NCBI GenBank assembly: GCA_026692865.1
Contig: JAPLNI010000057.1
Span: 460,476 to 492,475 of the forward strand
Direction: 5' to 3'
DNA: 32,000 nt
Source: Planctomycetota bacterium
Lineage (GTDB): Bacteria > Planctomycetota > Planctomycetia > Pirellulales > Pirellulaceae
Shown here: positions 3,683-18,700 of the stretch, piece after piece
How the letters are laid out: every line of letters starts with the position of its first letter
Numbering within the stretch: position 1 is the stretch's first letter
Position numbers and translations under genes: made by a program
The notes under the pieces: model-generated
The model's database searches: none
The model's input: the letters and a program-made list of their open reading frames with translations, nothing else
What the model was told of the DNA's origin: nothing

Positions 3683-4771
3683 ATGAAGGATGTTTTGGAG
3701 TCGACTTCGCGGGGTTTGTACTGCGTACCGGGCGACTTTTATATTGACCCATGTTTACCCGTTAATCGGGCGGTGGTCACCCACGCGCACTCGGACCACG
3801 CTCGCTGGGGTTGCAAACGGTACCTTGCTGCGAAACCCTGTGAGCAATTACTGCGAATGCGGATGAGTCCGGATGCTGAATTTCGTTTTTTGCCCTATGG
3901 CGAAACGATCACAATCGGCGGTGTTCAAATCAGTTTTTACCCTGCGGGCCATATCTTAGGCTCAGCACAAATTCGTCTTGAGTACCAGGGCTTGGTGATT
4001 TTAATCACAGGCGATTACAAACTGGGGTACGATTCGACTTGCGATTCATGGCAACCCATGCGTTGTCACCACATGATCAGCGAATCGACTTTTGGTTTAC
4101 CTATCTACCGATGGCCATCTCAACAAGTGGTATTCGAGTCGATCAATCAATGGTGGCGAGATTGCCGCGAGCAGGGGAAGTGTTGCGTGCTGTATGGATA
4201 CGCTATTGGCAAGAGCCAAAGATTGCTTGCCGGACTGGATCCTACGATCGGAACAATTTATTGCCACGGAGCTGTTCAAAAAGGAAACGAGGCTTACCGG
4301 CGAACAGGAATCCATTTACCTGAAACCACCTATGTCGGATCTGTTACAGGGAAGCATGATTGGAAGGGAGCGATGGTTGTAGCTGTTCCCAGCGTCCATG
4401 GTACTCCTTGGCTTAAAAAGTTCGGTCGTTACAGTACAGCTATGGCGAGTGGTTGGATGGCTGTTAGGGGTGCTCGTCGCCGAAGATCGGTTGATCGTGG
4501 ATATGTTTTAAGCGACCATGTAGATTGGCCATCACTGATGACGGCAATCCATGAATGCAACCCCGAAACAGTTTGGTTAACGCATGGATTCACAGCAACG
4601 GTGGCGCGGTATCTTGTCGAACAGGGACGGGATGCACGTGTGCTGGACTTGCTAGGTCGAGATCTGGGTGAAGAAGATAAGGATGAAGAAGAATCGAGTG
4701 ACGAGGATTTTATCGACGAACCAATCGGTCAAGGAAACGAATCACCAGAGATTGAGGCCACGACTTCATGA
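3683..4771 (+). CDS. Ligase-associated DNA damage response exonuclease (metallo-beta-lactamase / beta-CASP fold)
   Basis: 362-aa ORF. MBL motif VVTHAHSDHARW. The stop overlaps the ligase start (ATGA at 4768-4771). Its position is the one usual for the exonuclease in the four-gene ligase-associated cassette. Acidic C-terminal tail (EEDKDEEESSDEDFIDE). Confidence 0.85.
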   Translation: MKDVLESTSRGLYCVPGDFYIDPCLPVNRAVVTHAHSDHARWGCKRYLAAKPCEQLLRMRMSPDAEFRFLPYGETITIGGVQISFYPAGHILGSAQIRLEYQGLVILITGDYKLGYDSTCDSWQPMRCHHMISESTFGLPIYRWPSQQVVFESINQWWRDCREQGKCCVLYGYAIGKSQRLLAGLDPTIGTIYCHGAVQKGNEAYRRTGIHLPETTYVGSVTGKHDWKGAMVVAVPSVHGTPWLKKFGRYSTAMASGWMAVRGARRRRSVDRGYVLSDHVDWPSLMTAIHECNPETVWLTHGFTATVARYLVEQGRDARVLDLLGRDLGEEDKDEEESSDEDFIDEPIGQGNESPEIEATTS

Positions 4772-6393
4772 TTCGGTTTGCTGCCTTGTTCGATGCAATT
4801 GATAGAACGACCAAAACCAATGAAAAGCTAACGGCATTGGTCAACTACTTTCGCGAAGCGGATCATGCGGATGCTGCTTGGGCGACCTATTTCCTTTGCG
4901 GATCCAAGTTGAAACAATTGGTCCCAACAAAACTACTTCGGGCGTGGGCCGCACAAGAGGCCGATATCCCACCTTGGCTATTCGAGGAATCTTATCACAC
5001 GGTTGGGGATTTGGCGGAGACCTTAACTTTAACGGTACCGCCGGGCAACTTGGCCAGCGATGAGTCACTATCGACTTGGGTAGAACAGCGACTAATACCG
5101 TTGCGAGGGATGGCGGAAGCAGAACAGCATCAAGTCGTTGTCGCGATTTGGAATGAAACCCCGTTGGAGATGCGATTGGTAATTTTAAAACTGATTACGG
5201 GCGCATTTCGAGTAGGCGTTAGCAAGTCGATGGTGACGCGTGCTGTGGCGGAGTACGCTGGTGTATCCTCCGATGTCATTTCGCATCGTCTGATGGGTAC
5301 TTGGAAGCCCACTGCGGAATTCTTTGAGAAGTTGATTTCAAAAGAAGTTCAAGACACCATTTCCAGTCAGCCCTTTCCTTTTTGTTTAGCGCATCCGGTT
5401 GATCCCGCATTGTTTGATCCGGAATTGGGCCCAGGAGGAATTGGAAAAATCAGCGACTTTGCAGCCGAATGGAAATGGGATGGAATTCGAGGACAAGTGA
5501 TTCGACGCGACCAACAGGTTTTTGTTTGGTCGCGAGGTGAAGAGCTTATGGAGAACCGCTGGCCCGAAATCGAATCCGCCGCTCAACTTTTGCCTGATGG
5601 AACAGTTCTTGACGGCGAGATCTTGGCGTCGTTAGGCGAGAATCAAGTGCTGCCTTTCGCGCAGCTTCAGAAGCGAATTGGTAGAAAAGTGGTTAGCAAC
5701 AAGCTTTTGAAAGAAGTGCCCGTCATCTTTCAAGCGTTTGATCTGCTTCAAGATGCAGGACAAGACATTCGAACTTTGCAATTCTCCGAAAGGAGGCGAC
5801 GGTTGGAAAATCTGCTTTCGACAGTGAACCATCCCAACTTTTGCGTCACCCAACTCATTCCAGGAAATTCCTGGGATGAATGGTCCAAAGTTCGCGGCCA
5901 AAGCCGAGCCATGAATGCAGAGGGCTTGATGCTAAAGCGATGGAATGCAGCTTACGAAGTAGGGCGAGTTCGCGGGGTGTGGTGGAAATGGAAGGTTTCG
6001 CCCTACACGATCGATGCCGTGCTGATTTACGCTCAGAAGGGTCACGGAAAGCGGTCGGGGCTTTACACGGACTATACTTTCGCACTCTGGGACGGCGACA
6101 GATTGGTACCCTTTGCAAAAGCATATAGTGGGTTGGACGATCGGGAAATCAAAAAGATCGATCGATTCGTTCGTCAAAACACAAAAGAAGCGTTTGGACC
6201 AGTGCGGAGCGTCGCGCCTGCTTTGGTAATGGAGCTCGCGTTTGAAGGGTTGCAAATCAGTTCGCGTCACAAAAGTGGAATCGCAACACGTTTCCCTCGA
6301 ATCGTGCGATGGAGACATGATAAGAAACCGGAGGACGCGAATACCCTGAATGAATTGATGGGTTTATTGCCCGACTCGGAGCCTCAAGGATAG
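4768..6393 (+). CDS. ATP-dependent DNA ligase (bacterial ligase-associated-DDR type)
   Basis: 541-aa ORF. Adenylation motif I KxDG in AAEWKWDGIRGQVI. Further nucleotidyltransferase/OB-like motifs (DGEIL, EGLMLKR, WWKWK). Translationally coupled to the upstream exonuclease gene. Confidence 0.9.
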   Translation: MIRFAALFDAIDRTTKTNEKLTALVNYFREADHADAAWATYFLCGSKLKQLVPTKLLRAWAAQEADIPPWLFEESYHTVGDLAETLTLTVPPGNLASDESLSTWVEQRLIPLRGMAEAEQHQVVVAIWNETPLEMRLVILKLITGAFRVGVSKSMVTRAVAEYAGVSSDVISHRLMGTWKPTAEFFEKLISKEVQDTISSQPFPFCLAHPVDPALFDPELGPGGIGKISDFAAEWKWDGIRGQVIRRDQQVFVWSRGEELMENRWPEIESAAQLLPDGTVLDGEILASLGENQVLPFAQLQKRIGRKVVSNKLLKEVPVIFQAFDLLQDAGQDIRTLQFSERRRRLENLLSTVNHPNFCVTQLIPGNSWDEWSKVRGQSRAMNAEGLMLKRWNAAYEVGRVRGVWWKWKVSPYTIDAVLIYAQKGHGKRSGLYTDYTFALWDGDRLVPFAKAYSGLDDREIKKIDRFVRQNTKEAFGPVRSVAPALVMELAFEGLQISSRHKSGIATRFPRIVRWRHDKKPEDANTLNELMGLLPDSEPQG

Positions 6394-6444
6394 TGAACAG
6401 TAGCCAACGAGAGAGTCTAAACAAGAATTTTGGTGTTCGGGTAT

Positions 6445-6537
6445 TCTCGTACTCGTACTCAGGCGTTAGCCGGTACTCGTACTCGCTTTGCCGTTGAATC
6501 GAGTACGAGTACCATTTCATTGAGTACGAGTACGAGA
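6445..6537 (+). repeat. Nested double-hairpin repeat element, copy A, built from GTACTCGTACTC units arranged direct-direct-inverted-inverted
   Basis: Outer stem 6445-6460 / 6522-6537 (TCTCGTACTCGTACTC / GAGTACGAGTACGAGA, 16 bp perfect). Inner stem 6472-6485 / 6500-6513 (14 bp perfect) with a 14-nt loop. Unpaired spacers of 11 nt and 8 nt (ATTTCATT). Weaker flank similarity to copy B extends to about 6424-6553. Confidence 0.85.
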
Positions 6538-6614
6538 TTTCAGCAACGTATTTCAACTGCAAAACGCAACGTAACCAATTCAAACCAATTAGCCATTAGT
6601 AGTCACATTCCACA

Positions 6615-9095
6615 GTGCCCAACCAAGTTCCATTGAAACGCCTGCTCGATTACTTTGAGAGCAAAGGACACAAGCCGTTTCCTTTCCAACGAGACGCATG
6701 GAAAGCTTATGCTGAGGGTTCTAGCGGTTTAGTTCATTCGGCTACAGGGACAGGAAAGACGCTTGCTGTTTGGCTTGGACCAATACTGAGTTGGTTAAAG
6801 CAGAACAAAGATCAAGACCAATGGAATCCGAAGAATCCGCCGCCGCTGCGCGTGTTGTGGATTACACCGCTTCGCGCTTTGGCCGCCGACACTGAAAATG
6901 CCCTCCGATCTCCGATTGAAGCGATGAAGCTCCCTTGGCTTTTAGAATCTCGCACGGGCGACAGTCTTGCTAGCGTTAAGGCTAAACAACTCAAGCGGTT
7001 GCCGACTGCTTTGATTACAACCCCAGAAAGTCTTTGTCTTTTGCTGACACACGCTGCGTTGCAATCGCAATTGAGTCAGATCGAGGGGGTGATTGTAGAC
7101 GAATGGCATGAATTGCTAGGCAGTAAGCGAGGGGTGCAAGTGGAGTTGGCATTGGCCCGACTTCGCAGGCTCAATCCATCGCTGCGAACTTGGGGACTCT
7201 CCGCCACGCTTGGCAATCTGGACGAAGCAGGAGAGGCATTGTTTGGGGTTGCATCCACCGTTCCACGTAAGATCATCCAAGGTAAAAGCAAAAAGCGATT
7301 GAAGCTTGAATCTTTGATACCCGACAAGATGGAACGTTTCCCGTGGTCTGGCCATATTGGAACACGCATGGTGCGACAAGTATCGGAGCAAATTTCACAG
7401 GTCGCGAGCGCGTTGGTTTTTGCGAACACGCGATCGCAAACGGAAATTTGGTATCAGCATTTGTTGCAACATCGTCCTGATTGGGCAGGACAGATCGCTG
7501 TCCATCATGGGTCGCTAGATATCAGTGTGCGCGACTGGGTCGAAAATGGGTTGCGAAGTGGTAAGTTGCGAGCCGTCGTTTGTACGAGCAGCCTTGACTT
7601 AGGGGTCGACTTTTCAGCGGTAGATCTTGTCCTTCAAGTGGGCAGCCCTAAAGGCTCGGCTCGTTTGCTGCAGCGTGCGGGGCGAAGTGGTCACCAACCC
7701 GGCGCCGAAAGTCGGCTAGTCTTTGTTCCGACCAACGCTCTGGAACTGATCGAGATGGCGGCTGCCAAGGAAGCGATCCAGCAGGGCAAGATGGAGGCTC
7801 GTTTGCTGCTGAGCAAACCACTGGATGTTTTGATCCAGCATGCCGTGACGATCGCCATCGGGGGCGGTTTCCATTCAAAAGATTTGTTTGACGAAGTCCG
7901 AACAACCCAAGCGTTCCAAAATCTTACGGAAGACGAATGGCAATGGATTCTAGATTTCATTGTTCACGGTGGAAGTTCCTTGACCGCTTACCCGGAATTT
8001 CATCGAGTTCAATTGGTGGACGACCAGTACCAAGTATCGATGCGGCGCATCATTACTTTGCATCGCATGAATATTGGCACCATTGTTTCGGATACGGCGA
8101 TGAAGGTAAGGTACATGAGCGGCAGTACGATGGGTACCGTCGAAGAAAGTTTTATTTCAAAGCTGAAGGAAGGGGATCGTTTTTTGTTTGCGGGTAGGCT
8201 CGTAGAATTGGTGATCGTTCGCGATAACACTGCTTACGTAAAGCGATCGAAGGGGACTCCGGATGCGGTGCCACGATGGATGGGCGGGAGAATGCCGCTG
8301 TCAAGCGAACTGAGCACCGCGCTGCGCGATAAGATTCACGAAGCGTCGGAAAGCCATTTTGCTGGTCCCGAAATGAAATCCCTAAAAGGGTTGTTCGAGC
8401 TTCAGCAACGCTGGAGCGCTGTGCCAAAAAGAGATGAGCTTCTGATCGAACTGGTGCGCGAAAGAGCAGGGTACCATGCCTTTCTTTTCCCATTTGAAGG
8501 ACGTTTGGTGCATGAAGGCATGGCGTCTGTGTTGGCATACCGATTGACGCGTTTGCAACGCACCACAATGAGCATGGCATGCAATGACCATGGCATTGTT
8601 TTGCAATCGCCCCATGTGATCGAGATCGAGAAAGCGATAGCTCAAGGTTTGTTTTCTGCTGATAGACTCGAAGAGGACGTTCGGCAAAGTATGAACGCCA
8701 CTGAAATGGCCAAACGGCAGTTCCGTCAGATCGCTCGCGTATCGGGTTTGATCCAGTCTGGTTTACCTGGCCAACGCAAAAGCACCAATCATATCCAGGC
8801 CAGCAGCAATCTTTTCTTTGATGCATTTAGCGAACATGATTCGGGAAATTTACTGCTAAAGCAGTGCCGCAGAGAGGTACTTGAACAGCAGTTGGAATGG
8901 ACGCGTTTGCGTCTCGCGTTAGAGCGGATGGAGAATGGAAAGATCACGTTCATGTATCCAACTAAAGTGACGCCACTGGCTTTTTCGCTACTGGTGGATA
9001 AACTTCGCGAGCGAGTCAGTAGCGAAACCCTGGCTGACAGGGTCGAACGCATGCAAAAGGAACTTGAAAATGCTGCCGAAGGGAGCTCAAGGTAG
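6615..9095 (+). CDS. Ligase-associated DNA damage response DEXH-box helicase (Lhr-core-like, superfamily 2)
   Basis: 826-aa ORF with a GTG start. Walker A/motif I SATGTGKT; motif II VIVDEWHEL (DEWH); motif VI LLQRAGRSGH. Position in the cassette between the ligase and PdeM. Confidence 0.9.
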   Translation: MPNQVPLKRLLDYFESKGHKPFPFQRDAWKAYAEGSSGLVHSATGTGKTLAVWLGPILSWLKQNKDQDQWNPKNPPPLRVLWITPLRALAADTENALRSPIEAMKLPWLLESRTGDSLASVKAKQLKRLPTALITTPESLCLLLTHAALQSQLSQIEGVIVDEWHELLGSKRGVQVELALARLRRLNPSLRTWGLSATLGNLDEAGEALFGVASTVPRKIIQGKSKKRLKLESLIPDKMERFPWSGHIGTRMVRQVSEQISQVASALVFANTRSQTEIWYQHLLQHRPDWAGQIAVHHGSLDISVRDWVENGLRSGKLRAVVCTSSLDLGVDFSAVDLVLQVGSPKGSARLLQRAGRSGHQPGAESRLVFVPTNALELIEMAAAKEAIQQGKMEARLLLSKPLDVLIQHAVTIAIGGGFHSKDLFDEVRTTQAFQNLTEDEWQWILDFIVHGGSSLTAYPEFHRVQLVDDQYQVSMRRIITLHRMNIGTIVSDTAMKVRYMSGSTMGTVEESFISKLKEGDRFLFAGRLVELVIVRDNTAYVKRSKGTPDAVPRWMGGRMPLSSELSTALRDKIHEASESHFAGPEMKSLKGLFELQQRWSAVPKRDELLIELVRERAGYHAFLFPFEGRLVHEGMASVLAYRLTRLQRTTMSMACNDHGIVLQSPHVIEIEKAIAQGLFSADRLEEDVRQSMNATEMAKRQFRQIARVSGLIQSGLPGQRKSTNHIQASSNLFFDAFSEHDSGNLLLKQCRREVLEQQLEWTRLRLALERMENGKITFMYPTKVTPLAFSLLVDKLRERVSSETLADRVERMQKELENAAEGSSR

Positions 9096-9275
9096 CCAAC
9101 GATGGACGCTTTATCCAAGGATGCTATCGTTATGCCGACAGGCATCACAACAAATGAGCCGATGGCGTTAGCCACGGGTACCGACACGACTAAAGTTTGC
9201 CATCCGGCACTTACTGCAAGCAGCAATTGCAAAGAACCAATGTTACTATCATTAGGGCACAAAACGTCTGACGAA

Positions 9276-9926
9276 ATGCTCGAGGTTTCCATTGAAGGGA
9301 TTCGCTTGTGGCTGCATGCGAAGCGGGGTGTCTTTTGGCCTGACAAAAGAACTTTATTTATCGCAGACACTCATTTTGGAAAAGAAGCAACGTTTCGTAG
9401 CCAAGGAATCGCAGCACCGCGAGGCAGCACCCGGGCCACGTTGAACACCATTGCAGAAATGATCGCAGAATGCGATGCGTCTCGTTTGATTTTGTTAGGT
9501 GATATGTTCCATGCGCAATCGTCTTTGTCGCAGGATATTCGGGAGGCTCTGGACCGTTTCTTCAGATCGCATCCACACCTGAAAACCAGTTTGGTTTTAG
9601 GCAACCATGACCGCGGTATCCATGCTTTGATTCAAGATTGGCCAATAGATATTATCGATTCGGGAACCGTTTTGGATTTGATTAGCATTTCGCATTTCCC
9701 ACAAGTACCTAGCCAGCCCGCTAAACTGCTTCTGTGTGGGCATCTGCATCCGGCGTATCGTTTCCAGTCCAAGCTAGATTCGGTCGGGAAATTGTCATGT
9801 TTTTGGCTATCCAATCGCCAGCTTGTTTTGCCTGCGATCGGTGAATTTACGGGAACACAAGTGGTCCATCCGAGCAAAACAGATCAAACCTGGGTCATCG
9901 TGGATGACCGAATACTTCGAGTGTAA
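9276..9926 (+). CDS. pdeM: Ligase-associated DNA damage response endonuclease PdeM (binuclear metallophosphoesterase)
   Basis: Motifs LFIADTHFGKE, LLGDMFH, LGNHDR, CGHLHP. The ORF is open from 9102, but the first 58 codons are low-complexity and have no family counterpart that I recognise. The ATG at 9276 leaves about 24 aa before the first metal motif, which is typical for this family. The start is therefore uncertain (9102, 9240 or 9276). Confidence 0.8.
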   Translation: MLEVSIEGIRLWLHAKRGVFWPDKRTLFIADTHFGKEATFRSQGIAAPRGSTRATLNTIAEMIAECDASRLILLGDMFHAQSSLSQDIREALDRFFRSHPHLKTSLVLGNHDRGIHALIQDWPIDIIDSGTVLDLISISHFPQVPSQPAKLLLCGHLHPAYRFQSKLDSVGKLSCFWLSNRQLVLPAIGEFTGTQVVHPSKTDQTWVIVDDRILRV

Positions 9927-10180
9927 TGAATATGCCGCTGTCACCTGCAGATATCGATCGAATCATTCAAATGGCTTGGGAAGATCGAACCGCATTCGAT
10001 ACGATTGAAACTCAGTTTGGCCTCACTCCTGGGGAGGTCATCAAACTCATGCGTTCCGAGATGAAGCCATCTTCATTTCGAATGTGGCGGGAACGAACCG
10101 CGGGGAGAAAAACAAAACATATCGCCCTTCGAGACTTCAAGGTCGGTCGCTTTCGATGTCCTGATCAAAAGGGCCCGTGA
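9926..10180 (+). CDS. TIGR03643 / DUF2805 family small protein
   Basis: 84-aa ORF. Hallmark RIIQMAWEDRTAFDTIETQFGL...VIKLMR...SSFRMWRERTAGRKTKH. Its ATG overlaps the pdeM stop (TAATG at 9924-9928). Confidence 0.75.
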   Translation: MNMPLSPADIDRIIQMAWEDRTAFDTIETQFGLTPGEVIKLMRSEMKPSSFRMWRERTAGRKTKHIALRDFKVGRFRCPDQKGP

Positions 10181-10242
10181 TTTGGGCGTTCTATCCTCTT
10201 ATGCGCCTCTTCTCGGCGAACGCTCTCTAGTCTTGCTTCCAA

Positions 10243-10344
10243 TCGTACTCGTACTCAATGAAATGGTAATCGTACTCCTACTCGGTTGAATGATTCGAAT
10301 CGAGTAGGAGTACGAGTACCGCCGATGGCTGAGTACGAGTACGA
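10243..10344 (-). repeat. Nested double-hairpin repeat element, copy B (inverted relative to copy A)
   Basis: Outer stem 10243-10256 / 10331-10344 (14 bp perfect). Inner stem 10265-10284 / 10301-10320 (19 of 20 bp, three hexamer units per arm) with a 16-nt loop. The 8-nt spacer AATGAAAT is the exact reverse complement of ATTTCATT in copy A. Flank similarity to copy A extends to about 10228-10378. Confidence 0.85.
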
Positions 10345-10414
10345 AAAGAAAGGGATTACGAACAAAAATTTCTTTCAGGTGTGGGCGATTGGTGAGGAGT
10401 GTCTGCAATTCTTG

Positions 10415-11203
10415 TTATCTCTGACAAACCGCACAAGCATACATCTGTCGATTGCCAAGCAGCCATTTCTGTGTAGCTGATGCACAAATTGGAGAAAATT
10501 CCTTTTTATAGATCCACAGCCGCTCTTCGGAAGTTAGTTTGCTAAGAGGCTTATCCGATTCGTCGCGACTTTTTGTGATTATTCGATTGTACTTCACACC
10601 GACTTCGAGCAGTCGAACTGAAGTCTTCCAAAGCTCATCAAACTCTTCGTGTGTAAAAGAACAACTTGGACGCGTTGGATGAACACTCATCAAGAAAAGT
10701 ATCTCCGCTCGATAGATGTTGCCTATGCCTGCGATGATCGATTGATCCAGGAGCAACTGACCAATTGGCTTTTTGCTTTTCTGAATCCGAGCCCATGCGC
10801 GCTCTGGATTTGCATCGGTCCGAAGCGGATCTTCGCCGATTTTCTTCCTGGAGTCTGCTATCTGTTGAGCATTCAGGACTACACACTGATTGGGGCCATT
10901 GAGGTCCAACGTGTTTGTCTTTCCAATAAATCGAACGCGAACCGCACCACGTGGTTCAGGCGGTGGTGACGCGTGCAACCGAAACTTACCGTACAACCCA
11001 AGATGAACATGAAGAACATGAACTCCTGAGAAAAAGTAATAGAGATGCTTCCCATGCGCTTCCACGCTTTTCAACGTCCTCCCATCCAGCAATTCAGAGC
11101 CTTCAGCAAACCGCCCCTGTGGTGAGCTAACCTTTAATCGTTGCCCCGAAAACCACTTAGATTGGTCGCGTGCGAGTCGATGAACCGTATGTCCCTCTGG
11201 CAT
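10415..11203 (-). CDS. Fpg/Nei family DNA glycosylase / AP lyase (endonuclease VIII-like)
   Basis: N-terminus MPEGHTVHRLARD. The family needs Pro2 as the catalytic nucleophile, so the start is placed at the internal ATG (11203) rather than the ORF-track start at 11272. H2TH-like region IAGIGNIYRAEILF. The C-terminal finger is CASA...CAVCQ. Confidence 0.85.
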   Translation of the reverse strand: MPEGHTVHRLARDQSKWFSGQRLKVSSPQGRFAEGSELLDGRTLKSVEAHGKHLYYFFSGVHVLHVHLGLYGKFRLHASPPPEPRGAVRVRFIGKTNTLDLNGPNQCVVLNAQQIADSRKKIGEDPLRTDANPERAWARIQKSKKPIGQLLLDQSIIAGIGNIYRAEILFLMSVHPTRPSCSFTHEEFDELWKTSVRLLEVGVKYNRIITKSRDESDKPLSKLTSEERLWIYKKEFSPICASATQKWLLGNRQMYACAVCQR

Positions 11204-11352
11204 TATTTTTACATCTGAGTGAAAAGAACTAACTTGCAAAACAGGTATTACAATCGTGCCCCAACATCTCATGAGACGCTTGACGGCAATCTAGAATTTG
11301 ATTCAGACGAAAGCTCGCACAGTATTTAATCACATGGTTGGTATCAGTAGGT

Positions 11353-11565
11353 ATGCGTAAACATTCGAAATCGACTTTACCCACGAAGCTGTGCAAGGCA
11401 TGTAATCGACCATTCGCATGGCGGAAAAAATGGGAAAGGGACTGGGATAACGTAAACTACTGCAGCGAACGTTGCAAACGCCAGGGGAGTATAGTTCCCC
11501 CGGCTAGCAATAAAGCGGATAGTAGTAAAACTGCCAGTAGTAAAGCTACAGACATAAGGGCTTAA
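11353..11565 (+). CDS. DUF2256 domain protein (small Cys-rich protein that co-occurs with cryptochrome/photolyase genes)
   Basis: Motif [32 protein letters not shown]. The ORF is open from a TTG at 11338, and the first ATG at 11353 is preferred. The stop lies 1 nt before the GTG start of the CPF gene. Confidence 0.8.
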
Positions 11566-11566
11566 A

Positions 11567-13135
11567 GTGCATAGAAGTCCTGTTCAAATTGTTTGGCTCA
11601 AGCGCGATCTTCGACTGAACGATCACCGGCCGATCTTGGAAGCCAGTCTTGATGGTCCTACAGTGGTCTTGTATGTCTTCGAGCCAAAGCTTTGGTCGAT
11701 GCCGGAGATGGACCGATCCCACTTCGACTTCATCGTGCAGTCCTTGCAAGTGCTTTCTCGGAGTCTTGAAGCAATAGGTGGTCGATTAGCAATTCGTGTC
11801 GGCGAGTTACCCGAGGTGTTCGCTGAGATTGCCCGTTTTGTCGACATTGCTGCAATATACTCTCACGAAGAAACTGGAAACGGGTTTACTTTCGATCGTG
11901 ACAAGCGAGTTGCAAGATGGGCTCGCGAGATCGGTGTTCCGTGGAATCAGTATCCTCAAAACGGTGTGGTACGGCCACTCAAAAGCAGGAATGGCTGGGC
12001 AGCACTTTGGGAAACGAGAATGAAATCACCAATGGCCACAACACCTGATCGTATCGAGATTCCCGACCATTTCGATTGGGGAACAATACCAGAAGGTGAT
12101 GAACTCGAGCTAAAAAAGACGCAGAAGAAAAACCTCCAAATCGGTGGTGAGCGTCAAGCGATTGAAACGCTTCAATCGTTCTTAGATGGTCGAGGCTGCG
12201 ACTATCGCAAGGGGATGTCGAGTCCATCTACGGCGAAGGATAGTTGTAGTCGTCTAAGCCCCTCTCCCGCGTGGGGGTGCATCTCAATCAAACAGGTATA
12301 TCAACAGTTGCAAAGTCGACAGCAAGAGATTCGCGAGGCACCTGCTGGTGCAAGTGACTCGCGTTGGTATGGTTCGCTCAATTCATTTTCTTCACGGCTT
12401 GCATGGCACTGTCACTTCATGCAAAAACTCGAGGATGAACCGGAACTTGAGTTTCAGAATATCAGTCGAGTCTACGATGGGCTACGTGAGAACGAGTTTA
12501 ATCAAGAGCGATTTGAAGCATGGAAGGAAGGCATGACCGGCTATCCAATGATCGACGCGTGTATGCGTGCACTTAATGAGACTAGCTGGATCAATTTTCG
12601 CATGCGAGCGATGCTCGTTTCGTTCGCATCGAATCACTTATGGCTACATTGGCGTCCGACTGCAGTACATCTTGCACAGCATTTTCTTGACTTTGAACCG
12701 GGTATTCATTTCTCGCAGTTTCAAATGCAATCTGGCACAACCGGAATCAATACCATCCGAATCTATTCCCCTGCCAAGCAGGTAATCGATCACGATCCTA
12801 CGGGCGTATTCATAAAACAATATGTCCCGGACTTGGCGAATGTTCCCAACGAATTTCTATCCGAACCGCACCGAATGCCTTTGGATCTGCAAACTAAGAT
12901 CGGTTGCATAATCGGCAAAGACTATCCGCCACCGATAGTAGAGCACTGCAAGGCCTACAAATCGGCTCAAGAAAAGATCTTCTCGATTCGTCAAACGAAC
13001 TCAGCAATTAGCGAAGCCAAACGGGTATTTGTAAAACATGGTTCACGCAAAAATCGCGATCCGTTGCCGAAACCGAAGAAGAAGTCGGGCTTTCAGCAAT
13101 TGTCCCTTTTCGATGATTTCGATGATCCGCAATGA
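11567..13135 (+). CDS. Cryptochrome/photolyase family (CPF) FAD-binding protein; subclass not assignable by eye
   Basis: 522-aa ORF. N-terminal photolyase alpha/beta motif IVWLKRDLRLNDH. FAD-binding-domain motifs GGERQAIETLQSFL, SRLSP...WGCIS, TGYPMIDACMRAL, TSWINFRMRAMLVSF. Adjacent to DUF2256. Confidence 0.85.
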   Translation: MHRSPVQIVWLKRDLRLNDHRPILEASLDGPTVVLYVFEPKLWSMPEMDRSHFDFIVQSLQVLSRSLEAIGGRLAIRVGELPEVFAEIARFVDIAAIYSHEETGNGFTFDRDKRVARWAREIGVPWNQYPQNGVVRPLKSRNGWAALWETRMKSPMATTPDRIEIPDHFDWGTIPEGDELELKKTQKKNLQIGGERQAIETLQSFLDGRGCDYRKGMSSPSTAKDSCSRLSPSPAWGCISIKQVYQQLQSRQQEIREAPAGASDSRWYGSLNSFSSRLAWHCHFMQKLEDEPELEFQNISRVYDGLRENEFNQERFEAWKEGMTGYPMIDACMRALNETSWINFRMRAMLVSFASNHLWLHWRPTAVHLAQHFLDFEPGIHFSQFQMQSGTTGINTIRIYSPAKQVIDHDPTGVFIKQYVPDLANVPNEFLSEPHRMPLDLQTKIGCIIGKDYPPPIVEHCKAYKSAQEKIFSIRQTNSAISEAKRVFVKHGSRKNRDPLPKPKKKSGFQQLSLFDDFDDPQ

Positions 13136-18033: not shown

Positions 18034-18055
18034 GGTTCTTCCGGGAATTTAGTGG
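18034..18055 (+). repeat. ISL3 terminal inverted repeat (transposase-distal end): GGTTCTTCCGGGAATTTAGTGG
   Basis: Its reverse complement matches 18679-18700 at 21 of 22 positions. Confidence 0.8.
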
Positions 18056-18638
18056 CTAAGGGTTTTCTAGCGTGAGATCGAGTTTGCCGCAGAAGAATAA
18101 GATTCGCGTTCGGTAGTTATCGAAATTGCGGAATCCTCTAGCAACGCTTTTGATCGATACCAATATTCTCAATACCATCGAGTTGTCTTCGATCGAGACC
18201 GCGACTAACCGCTCGCTTCATCATCTCGTTGTTTGCACTCCAGTCCAGGTCAAGAAGAACCGCAGCAGCCTTGATTGTGGAGCGTATTTGAATGACCCCA
18301 ATGGCAATCCGTTCAAAGAGTAGTGTGAACCGCGAGTGTTTATCAGCCCAAGGTACGGCGATCGTAAGAACACCGCACTGTTCACATTTACTTCTGGGTA
18401 CCGATGCGTGAATCTAAGTGACGAATTGCATTGTATCTAGATGCCTCCAAGTCTGCGTGGCGGCCATATCCGCTTTAGAACAAACACCCTGGCAGCCAGG
18501 GCACGACAACGCCTTGCGTGAGTGCTCAATGTGGATGTCGACCCTCTTCTTATCGGGCTGAAATTCCACCGAGGTCACAGTCCAAGAGGTGTCTAAACCA
18601 AGTAACGCATGATCATGTTTTGTGGTAAGCTCGTTCAT
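18056..18638 (-). pseudogene. ISL3-family transposase pseudogene (N-terminal ~165 aa plus C-terminal 33 aa; in-frame TAG; DDE core deleted)
   Basis: From 18638: MNELTTKHDH...CPGCQGVCSKA...WRHLDTMQFVT, then a TAG at 18414-18416. The same frame continues IHASVPRSKCEQCGVLTIAVPWADKHSRFTLLFERIAIGV...IENIGIDQKRC, stopping at 18138. A different frame over 18157-18056 reads SIKSVARGFRNFDNYRTRILFFCGKLDLTLENP*, the conserved ISL3 C-terminus. Confidence 0.8.
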
Positions 18639-18678
18639 CCGCTAACGATTACCCTAACGGCGGCTTTTTCTCACCTAC

Positions 18679-18700
18679 CCACTAAACTCCCGGAAGAACC
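18679..18700 (-). repeat. ISL3 terminal inverted repeat (transposase-proximal end): CCACTAAACTCCCGGAAGAACC
   Basis: Partner of 18034-18055. Similarity continues weakly for a few bases inward. Confidence 0.8.

Follow-up and report, generated by a model that had tools for sequence, protein, structure and literature searches.

Two nested hairpins built of GTACTC/GAGTAC hexamers, copies A and B, lie in a 32,000-nt stretch of a Pirellulaceae genome (contig JAPLNI010000057.1; the whole stretch is referred to as the window). They are very probably the internal palindromic module of non-autonomous DNA transposons, or miniature inverted-repeat transposable elements (MITEs), about 160-330 bp long and spread through freshwater Pirellulaceae, a reading to which we assign a probability of about 0.8. 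A preliminary description of the window had proposed selection on a folded RNA or DNA, or on a structure recognised by a protein. The copies proved to be transposon interiors rather than a stand-alone RNA: the family features terminal inverted repeats (TIRs) and 8-bp target-site duplications (TSDs), a relative has empty sites, and the orientation of the copies is unbiased. The hexamer-core elements form a new MITE family, ordinary in kind, in which a 9-base motif is conserved to an unusual degree.

All parts of the two hairpins, as first described, were found at the positions given for them (Table 1), the arms 10265-10284 and 10301-10320 of copy B pairing at 19 of 20 positions. On the plus strand copy A reads (GTACTC)2, aggcgttagccg, (GTACTC)2, a 16-nt loop, (GAGTAC)2, CATTTCATT, (GAGTAC)2: an outer and an inner stem, separated by a variable spacer (s1) on one side and by a conserved nonamer (s2) on the other. 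In the reference orientation used here (O1), s1 comes first and s2 second; copy B is in O1 on the minus strand. The two copies do lie in opposite orientation, with three inner-stem units per arm in copy B and two in copy A, and a repeat search relates them by a 35-nt inverted repeat of 97% identity, while the inverted repeat of copy B itself grows to 23 nt per arm at 91% identity. One detail called for correction, as the variant pair CTACTC/GAGTAG is present, but next to the loop and not in the middle of the stem. One can be added: the s1 spacers, reported as different, do differ in sequence, and form a 3-bp mini-hairpin in both copies. Hexamer dimers number 10 in the window, against 0.04 expected, and both copies have a predicted fold of -57 to -65 kcal/mol (z-score about -10 to -11) on either strand, since the sequence is a DNA palindrome.

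Terminal repeats, target duplications and an ISL3 partner

Aligned flanks of oriented copies reveal that the elements reach well beyond the hexamers, and that TIRs of at least three unrelated types, denoted T1, T2 and T3, bound the core. The commonest class, T1, has perfect 18-bp TIRs (TTTTGAAGTTGCGCTATT... with ...AATAGCGCAACTTCAAAA), and in its elements about 40 nt separate TTTTGAAGTTGCGCTATTCGAG from the core, and about 10 nt the core from AATAGCGCAACTTCAAAA. The TIRs of T2 (GACACTTCTCGCCGATCACCACCAC) and T3 (GGTTCTTCAGGAATTATTGTGG, in elements which also feature a 'loop' of about 96 nt) are 22-25 bp long. Paired TIRs lie mostly 100-250 bp apart in T1, 150-250 bp in T2 and about 250-330 bp in T3.

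TSDs of 8 bp, scored when at least 7 of the 8 bases were identical, border 27 of 80 T1 elements, as compared to 1.5% of shuffled controls; they were found in 7 of 16 T2 elements, and perfect ones in 6 of 9 T3 elements. The target sites of T1 resemble GCGCTAGC. A target duplication of 8 bp is a trait of the ISL3 family of insertion sequences (ISs; ISfinder).

One of the three classes has a recognizable partner: a 1314-bp IS with T3-like TIRs (locus L204, 161-1474) encodes a 406-aa ISL3 transposase, which matches PF01610 with E=3.8e-78 and carries the helix-turn-helix and zinc-ribbon domains of the family. An internally deleted IS of the same family, with T3-type TIRs, is found in the window (Table 1). 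In tblastn its remnants match residues 1-163 of the L204 transposase at 54% identity and residues 375-404 at 70%; no clear target duplication is visible at its ends. The autonomous element of L204 contains no hexamers, and other MITEs with T1 TIRs have a different interior: the core is, therefore, a passenger module and not a sequence of IS ends. The idea that hexamer clusters are subterminal transposase-binding repeats taken from IS ends was accordingly rejected for T3.

Some pairs of T1 TIRs lie far apart, and were evaluated as possible autonomous elements. Those at L038 (2871 bp) and L162 (1528 bp) turned out to be two MITEs flanking ordinary genes, and the pair at L178 also encloses ordinary genes. 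At L081 (1005-1232), T1 TIRs bound a MITE with a wholly unrelated long-hairpin interior, so that the T1 transposase mobilises several families. A second ISL3-family IS, at L215 (10130-11425), encodes a transposase 44% identical to that of L204 and has different TIRs (CATCCGGGTTTTGTGTGGGTA / TACCCACGGTAATCCCGGATG).

Size and distribution of the family

At least 120 loci, in about 22 Pirellulaceae genomes, carry the hexamer core, one genome having been scanned per species. The first sample was collected with a pattern of two hexamer dimers 10 nt apart, which is anchored on the s1 side and leaves the nonamer unselected. The second sample, from a metagenome scan anchored on the perfect nonamer, contributed at least 120 further loci, in which the arms are unselected except for the two units adjoining s2. 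Among the matches listed, all are from Planctomycetota: nearly all belong to metagenome-assembled genomes (MAGs) of freshwater Pirellulaceae (Pirellula, Aureliella, Rubripirellula, Stieleria), one is a Thermoguttaceae MAG, and dozens come from one single MAG. The cultured strain Stieleria sedimenti ICT_E10.1 also carries a hexamer cluster (L062). A literature search found no paper describing the hexamer dimer as a repeat, and nothing on this family in work on repetitive extragenic palindromic (REP) sequences and MITEs of Planctomycetes or on ISL3 MITEs.

The window copies as insertions

Copy B occupies almost entirely the gap between the convergent DUF2805 and Nei/Fpg genes. When the window is searched for the T2 TIR 23-mer, with up to 6 mismatches allowed, the left TIR of copy B is the sole match, in the expected place and on the expected strand; the element contains no specific open reading frame (ORF). 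Copy A is located between the genes for an ATP-dependent DNA ligase and for Lhr, within a ligase-Lhr-PdeM repair cluster. Traces resembling T1 are found on its left (CTCGGAGCCTCAA) and right (CAACTGCAAAA), the TIR matches being weak.

The closest syntenic relative, L121, has the same gene order, with ligase and Lhr 88-90% identical and PdeM 80% identical to those of the window, and contains neither copy: its ligase and Lhr genes overlap by 4 nt, and only 26 nt separate DUF2805 from Nei. Both window copies are, therefore, insertions. Copy A is missing from L122 as well. To judge from the alignments, copy B is best described as a decayed T2 element, and copy A is probably a more eroded, T1-like one. 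Comparison of the junctions indicates that copy A has replaced about 27 bp, with loss of the ligase/Lhr overlap and of about 21 N-terminal codons of Lhr, which now starts with a GTG immediately after the element.

Table 1. Positions of the hexamer-core elements, of their parts and of related features in the window
Feature	Position	Strand	Remarks
Copy A insertion	~6376-6561	+	Ligase-Lhr junction; boundaries inferred by eye
Copy A core	6449-6533	+	Outer arms 6449-6460 / 6522-6533; inner arms 6473-6484 / 6501-6512
Copy A s1	6461-6472	+	aGGC-gtta-GCCg
Copy A loop	6485-6500	+	16 nt
Copy A s2	6513-6521	+	CATTTCATT
DUF2805 gene	9926-10180	+	Flanks copy B
Copy B element	10205-10403	-	Complete T2-class MITE, 199 bp, by end-to-end alignment with T2 elements of Aureliella and other Pirellulaceae
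Copy B right TIR	10205-10227	+	Degenerate, GCCTCTTCTCGGCGAACGCTCTC on the + strand; 15/23 to T2 consensus; aligns with T2 right TIRs
Copy B core	10245-10342		
Copy B outer arm	10245-10256	+	GTACTCGTACTC = (GTACTC)2; pairs with 10331-10342
Copy B s2	10257-10265	+	Conserved nonamer AATGAAATG, reverse complement of CATTTCATT
Copy B inner arm	10266-10284	+	GTAATC-GTACTC-CTACTC-G; pairs with 10301-10319; one mismatch, in GTAATC
Copy B terminal loop	10285-10300	+	16 nt
Copy B inner arm	10301-10319	+	C-GAGTAG-GAGTAC-GAGTAC; GAGTAG unit common to Aureliella T2 elements
Copy B s1	10320-10330	+	cgccgatggct; in O1 the mini-palindrome aGCC-atc-GGCg, predicted small hairpin
Copy B outer arm	10331-10342	+	GAGTACGAGTAC = (GAGTAC)2
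Copy B left TIR	10379-10403	-	Degenerate, GACACTCCTCACCAATCGCCCACAC on the - strand; 17/23 to T2 consensus
Nei/Fpg gene	10415-11272	-	Flanks copy B
Deleted ISL3-family IS	18034-18700	-	25-bp T3-type TIRs GGTTCTTCCGGGAATTTAGTGGCTA / TACCCACTAAACTCCCGGAAGAACC, 92% complementary; transposase remnants

Both copies lie in a DNA-repair island (4768-13135), which includes the ATP-dependent ligase, the Lhr helicase, the PdeM metallophosphoesterase, DUF2805, the Nei/Fpg glycosylase and a photolyase. The gene order of the island is kept in L121 and L123, and in L122 only through DUF2805, after which an aldo-keto reductase is found instead of Nei.

Several observations weigh against the interpretation as MITEs. 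About 2 Mb of loci were searched, and neither T1 nor T2 (to which copy B belongs) yielded an autonomous partner; that these two classes are also mobilised by ISL3-like transposases is something we infer from the 8-bp length of their TSDs only. Within the window, a TIR scan of copy A recognised no left TIR, and neither copy has a recognizable TSD, the flanks of copy B (tcttatgc and tgcaattc) being different: the class assignment of the window copies depends, as a consequence, on alignments and on weak TIR matches. The MITE account does not explain where the core came from, nor why three TIR classes share it. Perfect left arms were required for entry into the first sample, and a perfect nonamer for entry into the second, so that each statistic is unbiased in one sample only. 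Finally, the random orientation of the copies relative to neighboring ORFs (16 same/same, 15 opposite/opposite, 12 convergent and 12 divergent), in itself in favor of MITEs, was scored on crude stop-to-stop ORFs of at least 150 aa.

Probable slippage in the hexamer arms

The matching gain of a unit on both arms of copy B, initially presented as a symmetric, structure-preserving expansion, is one state of a slippage polymorphism. Unit numbers are equal in both stems in 14 of the 53 compact elements of the nonamer-anchored sample, and the inner stems are unequal in 48 of the 80 elements of the first sample. Orthologous loci from different metagenomes vary on one arm, with 5, 3 and 4 outer-right units in one case, 2 and 3 outer-right units in another and 3 and 5 inner-right units in a third: this is direct evidence for slippage.

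A similar fate awaited the G:C to C:G flip in the inner stem of copy B, which had been read as a compensated change. About 8.8% of the units on each arm are variant, and a complementary partner was found for none of 29 in the nonamer-anchored sample and for 4 of 66 in the first sample. When covariation was evaluated on a gap-free alignment of 14 elements of the 2-3-3-2 type (34 pairs, 500 shuffles), the flip of copy B was the sole double change, and 114 of the 500 shuffles scored as high, hence it is not significant. The GAGTAG unit of copy B is inherited from the T2 subfamily: T2 elements of Aureliella have it too, for the most part with no CTACTC to pair with. Selection on the arms is not supported.

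Mismatches show no excess of G-U on either strand in either sample. The asymmetry between G-U and A-C mismatches was also tried as a means to pick a functional RNA strand, and discarded because of the lack of a consistent bias, the asymmetry seen in the first sample being an ascertainment artefact of the search pattern. The loop is found in both orientations (46 versus 15 and 23 versus 11), with about a quarter to a third of the copies flipped, and blocks composed of an arm and a spacer are found tandemly duplicated.

These features suggest that the arms would behave as a microsatellite, in which replication slippage adds or removes units on each arm independently of the other. The core as a whole would evolve at the DNA level, by tandem duplication of arm-plus-spacer blocks and by inversion of the inner loop through exchange between the inverted arms. 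Such processes and subfamily ancestry, rather than selected compensation, would then account for the 3+3 state of copy B and for its paired CTACTC/GAGTAG units. The preliminary description had named uncompensated arm mutations joined to a variable octamer spacer, or homogenisation by slippage, as evidence to the contrary of its own proposal: the arms do show uncompensated mutations and slippage, while the spacer is not variable.

The nonamer block and the facing mini-palindrome

The first sample was not selected on the nonamer; of its 80 elements, which come from about 22 genomes, 68 have an exact CATTTCATT. The nonamer reaches a pairwise identity of 0.95, while in the same copies s1 reaches 0.71, the loop 0.56-0.65 and the A/T-rich proximal flanks 0.5-0.65. 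The unpaired spacer shared by both window copies is, as had been suggested, a conserved motif, intact also where the TIRs have decayed: nonamer divergence stays at 2-5% as TIR divergence climbs to 13-37%, although part of the latter may be a difference between subfamilies rather than decay.

What is conserved is the sequence, and not, as had also been claimed, its single-stranded state. The nonamer block is found in tandem arrays of period 21 (L204, L211) and in elements without left arms, and in fully palindromic variants such as L148, where s1 is replaced by the complement of the nonamer, it is fully base-paired; tandem and paired contexts imply conservation of a sequence block rather than of an unpaired state. 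The s1 spacer has a different kind of regularity, being always a[palindrome]g, with the forms GC-N4-GC (mostly GNNA), GC-gaa-GC, GT-gca-AC, GCC-ttt-GGC, GCCC-gga-GGGC and GTCCGCC-gc-GGCGGAC. Judged by these forms, s1 seems to be the one part of the core that changes its sequence and yet stays paired. Both the nonamer, with its flanking GAGTAC dimers, and the palindromic character of s1 do look constrained.

Whether this conservation has a function bears on the most credible of the competing explanations, namely that the MITEs carry a functionless passenger core, whose nonamer seems conserved because copies are young, because an A/T-rich sequence mutates slowly or because of sampling. Uncompensated slippage in the arms, flipping of the loop, the presence of many near-identical copies within one genome and the composition of the first sample, in which the requirement of intact left arms raises the share of well-preserved cores, are all in its favor. 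It has difficulty, though, in accounting for the figures within ELA058 alone, where pairwise identity is 0.96 for the nonamer, 0.80 for s1, 0.79 for the loop and about 0.6 for equally A/T-rich proximal flanks, for the gap between nonamer and TIR divergence, and for the fact that three TIR classes, and also elements whose 96-nt interiors are unrelated, have the block in common. We regard it as rather unlikely, while leaving it more room than any other rival.

The GAGTAC2-CATTTCATT-GAGTAC2 block is, on the contrary reading of the same conservation, a candidate site for a sequence-specific protein binding to DNA. This is a guess, somewhat less probable than its opposite, and guided by analogy with the protein sites of Correia elements and of some REP-type repeats, discussed below; binding would be the reason why the block is retained regardless of orientation, TIR class and hairpin context. 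A more ambitious version, which we consider improbable, holds that the nonamer block and the GC-clamped mini-palindrome on the opposite arm form a functional DNA module, captured independently by at least three MITE lineages and kept by selection after insertion: it may be the site of a host nucleoid or regulatory protein, or that of a structure-specific enzyme acting on an extruded three-way junction.

A sister family with T1-type TIRs is built of GTGCTC/GAGCAC hexamers (L038, 4375-4520; L047, 1511-1640) and has the spacer AATccgccaaagcggATG instead of AATGAAATG. It keeps CAT...ATT, with a 12-nt mini-hairpin in the middle.

Unlikely readings: structured RNA and single-stranded DNA hairpins

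A structured RNA, either cis-regulatory or a small RNA, with a three-way-junction fold under selection and the nonamer as single-stranded recognition motif, would agree with the very stable fold (z-score about -10), with the conservation of the unpaired nonamer and with the maintenance of the s1 mini-hairpin through GC/GC, GT/AC, GCC/GGC, GCCC/GGGC and GTCCGCC/GGCGGAC. Copy A, moreover, must be transcribed, being inside the ligase-Lhr operon. Against all this stand the random orientation of the copies and most of the results on the core itself: no significant covariation, with none of the 29 variant units compensated, no G-U excess on either strand, stems of usually unequal unit number, a loop which occurs as its own reverse complement, a nonamer sometimes fully paired or in tandem arrays, and a fold equally good on both strands.

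Signals expected of an RNA gene are missing too. Neither a sigma-70-type promoter nor an intrinsic terminator was found in the elements examined (T1, T3 and copy B), and no U-tract follows the hairpin on either strand. Rfam 15 gave nothing on the window at gathering thresholds, and nothing at E up to 1 on the elements of L073 and L114. We consider a structured RNA very unlikely. The 96-97-nt 'loops' of T3-type and related elements were evaluated as a hidden RNA gene and set aside, since RNAalifold consensus structures were weak (-8 and -15 kcal/mol) and had no covariation support. A conserved neighbor, as expected for cis-regulation, was likewise looked for, and the neighboring genes proved to be unrelated (a peptidase, a kinase, a ROK protein, LepA and an extracytoplasmic function sigma factor).

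Least probable of all, by a small step, is that the core is an independent single-stranded DNA hairpin of the REP/REPIN type, or a target of HUH or other structure-specific enzymes, later trapped in several MITEs. In favor of this, three unrelated types of TIR do surround one core, together with about 8 bp of additional basal stem, no TIR is recognizable for about 40% of the hexamer clusters, the autonomous ISL3 element is without the core and, on one strand, the majority of s1 variants have the form GC-GNNA-GC or GC-GAA-GC, which matches the very stable d(GCGAAGC)-type DNA mini-hairpins. On the other side, the GTAG/CGTC tag is absent, no gene for a REP-associated tyrosine transposase or HUH protein was seen near the copies among the neighbors examined, with no systematic search made, well-preserved copies have TIRs and TSDs, and many TIR-less copies resemble decayed TIR-bearing ones (as L017 does L104).

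Comparison with known repeat families

As MITEs, the hexamer-core elements are members of the ISL3-derived kind, the link of T1 and T2 being inferred from TSD length; in their working they resemble the BOX and Correia elements. With ISL3-derived MITEs they share the short, non-coding sequence, TIRs and 8-bp TSDs, many dispersed intergenic copies in either orientation, a class whose TIRs match those of a transposase-bearing ISL3 element and insertion polymorphism in a close relative. They differ in their interior, a hexanucleotide-microsatellite palindrome which is not derived from IS ends and is found in three TIR classes, in an internal 9-mer better conserved than their own TIRs, and in that the partner IS of T1 and T2 was not found.

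Correia elements of Neisseria (CREE, NEMIS) are TIR-bounded MITEs, which form long hairpins when transcribed, insert between or within operons and contain an internal site for integration host factor (IHF). The hexamer-core elements share the TIRs, the long hairpin when transcribed, the insertion between or within operons and an internal conserved site, for which protein binding is here a guess; an IHF-like consensus was not recognized in the nonamer block. Correia elements differ in the duplication of TA, in the TIRs and in having no microsatellite arms. They might nonetheless be the best model, by analogy, for how a hexamer-core element works.

BOX elements of Streptococcus pneumoniae are modular intergenic repeats of the form boxA-boxB(n)-boxC, with a variable tandem unit and strong hairpins, thought to be mobilised in trans. 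Modularity, intergenic location, a variable internal tandem unit, hairpin potential and presumed mobilisation in trans are common to both families. The BOX unit, however, is about 45 nt long and is placed between distinct A and C modules, whereas here a 6-nt unit recurs on both arms of a nested palindrome, within elements bounded by TIRs and TSDs.

Bacterial interspersed mosaic elements (BIMEs) that bind proteins are also known. REP, BIME and REPIN sequences, mobilised by REP-associated tyrosine transposases (RAYTs, IS200/IS605-like Y1 enzymes), are, like the present ones, abundant extragenic palindromes, sometimes clustered; a further link is that other mobile elements of these genomes appear to target small GC-rich palindromes, the T1 target sites resembling GCGCTAGC. 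REP superfamilies are defined by an unpaired GTAG or CGTC tag at the end of the stem-loop (PMC3733652). No such tag was found in the hexamer-core elements: the basal flanks read ...TTTTC and GA.A.AA..., and GTAG occurs only inside the rare GAGTAG unit. The hexamer-core elements differ, besides, in having TIRs, 8-bp TSDs and a nested palindrome of tandem hexamers.

Neighboring repeat families

Another palindromic repeat, TGAGCCTGAGGCGCTAGCCGA...TCGGCTAGCGCCTCAGGCTCA, is found in L123 (3355-3440), in L124 and in ELA058 loci, such as the flanks of L054, L049 and L111. In the relative L123 it sits at the same ligase-Lhr junction as copy A does in the window. It is a frequent insertion target of T1, with TSDs CTAGCGCC or GGCGCTAG, and the consensus of T1 target sites is similar to s1 in the hexamer core. 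The repeat CCCAACCCGACGCGTTAGCGAGGGATTTCC is abundant in Pirellula samp_2047 (L014, L016, L053, L071, L083, L119 and L120), often beside truncated hexamer elements or interleaved with them, and in tandem at L120. In L010 (3815-4818), partial hexamer elements with no recognizable TIRs are arrayed at intervals of about 270 bp.

Implications

Repeat families of Planctomycetota are almost undescribed, and the one reported here is abundant, with dozens of copies in a MAG and hundreds of matches in lake metagenomes. Its hexamer arms are a natural copy-number marker, which could serve for strain typing in metagenomes. At the level of single loci, copy A has separated the ligase and Lhr genes, which once overlapped, and a hairpin of -59 kcal/mol is now found in their transcript. 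The case also recommends caution: TIRs and target duplications are to be checked before stable, apparently 'covarying' intergenic hairpins are called RNA motifs.

An internal 9-mer block, better conserved than the transposon ends and common to three TIR classes, goes beyond routine annotation. If it is a protein site, the hexamer-core MITEs would be seen spreading a functional DNA module through a genome; and the captured module, if truly such, would be for planctomycetes what the protein-binding sites of BIME or Correia elements are elsewhere, with transposons as the means of its spread.

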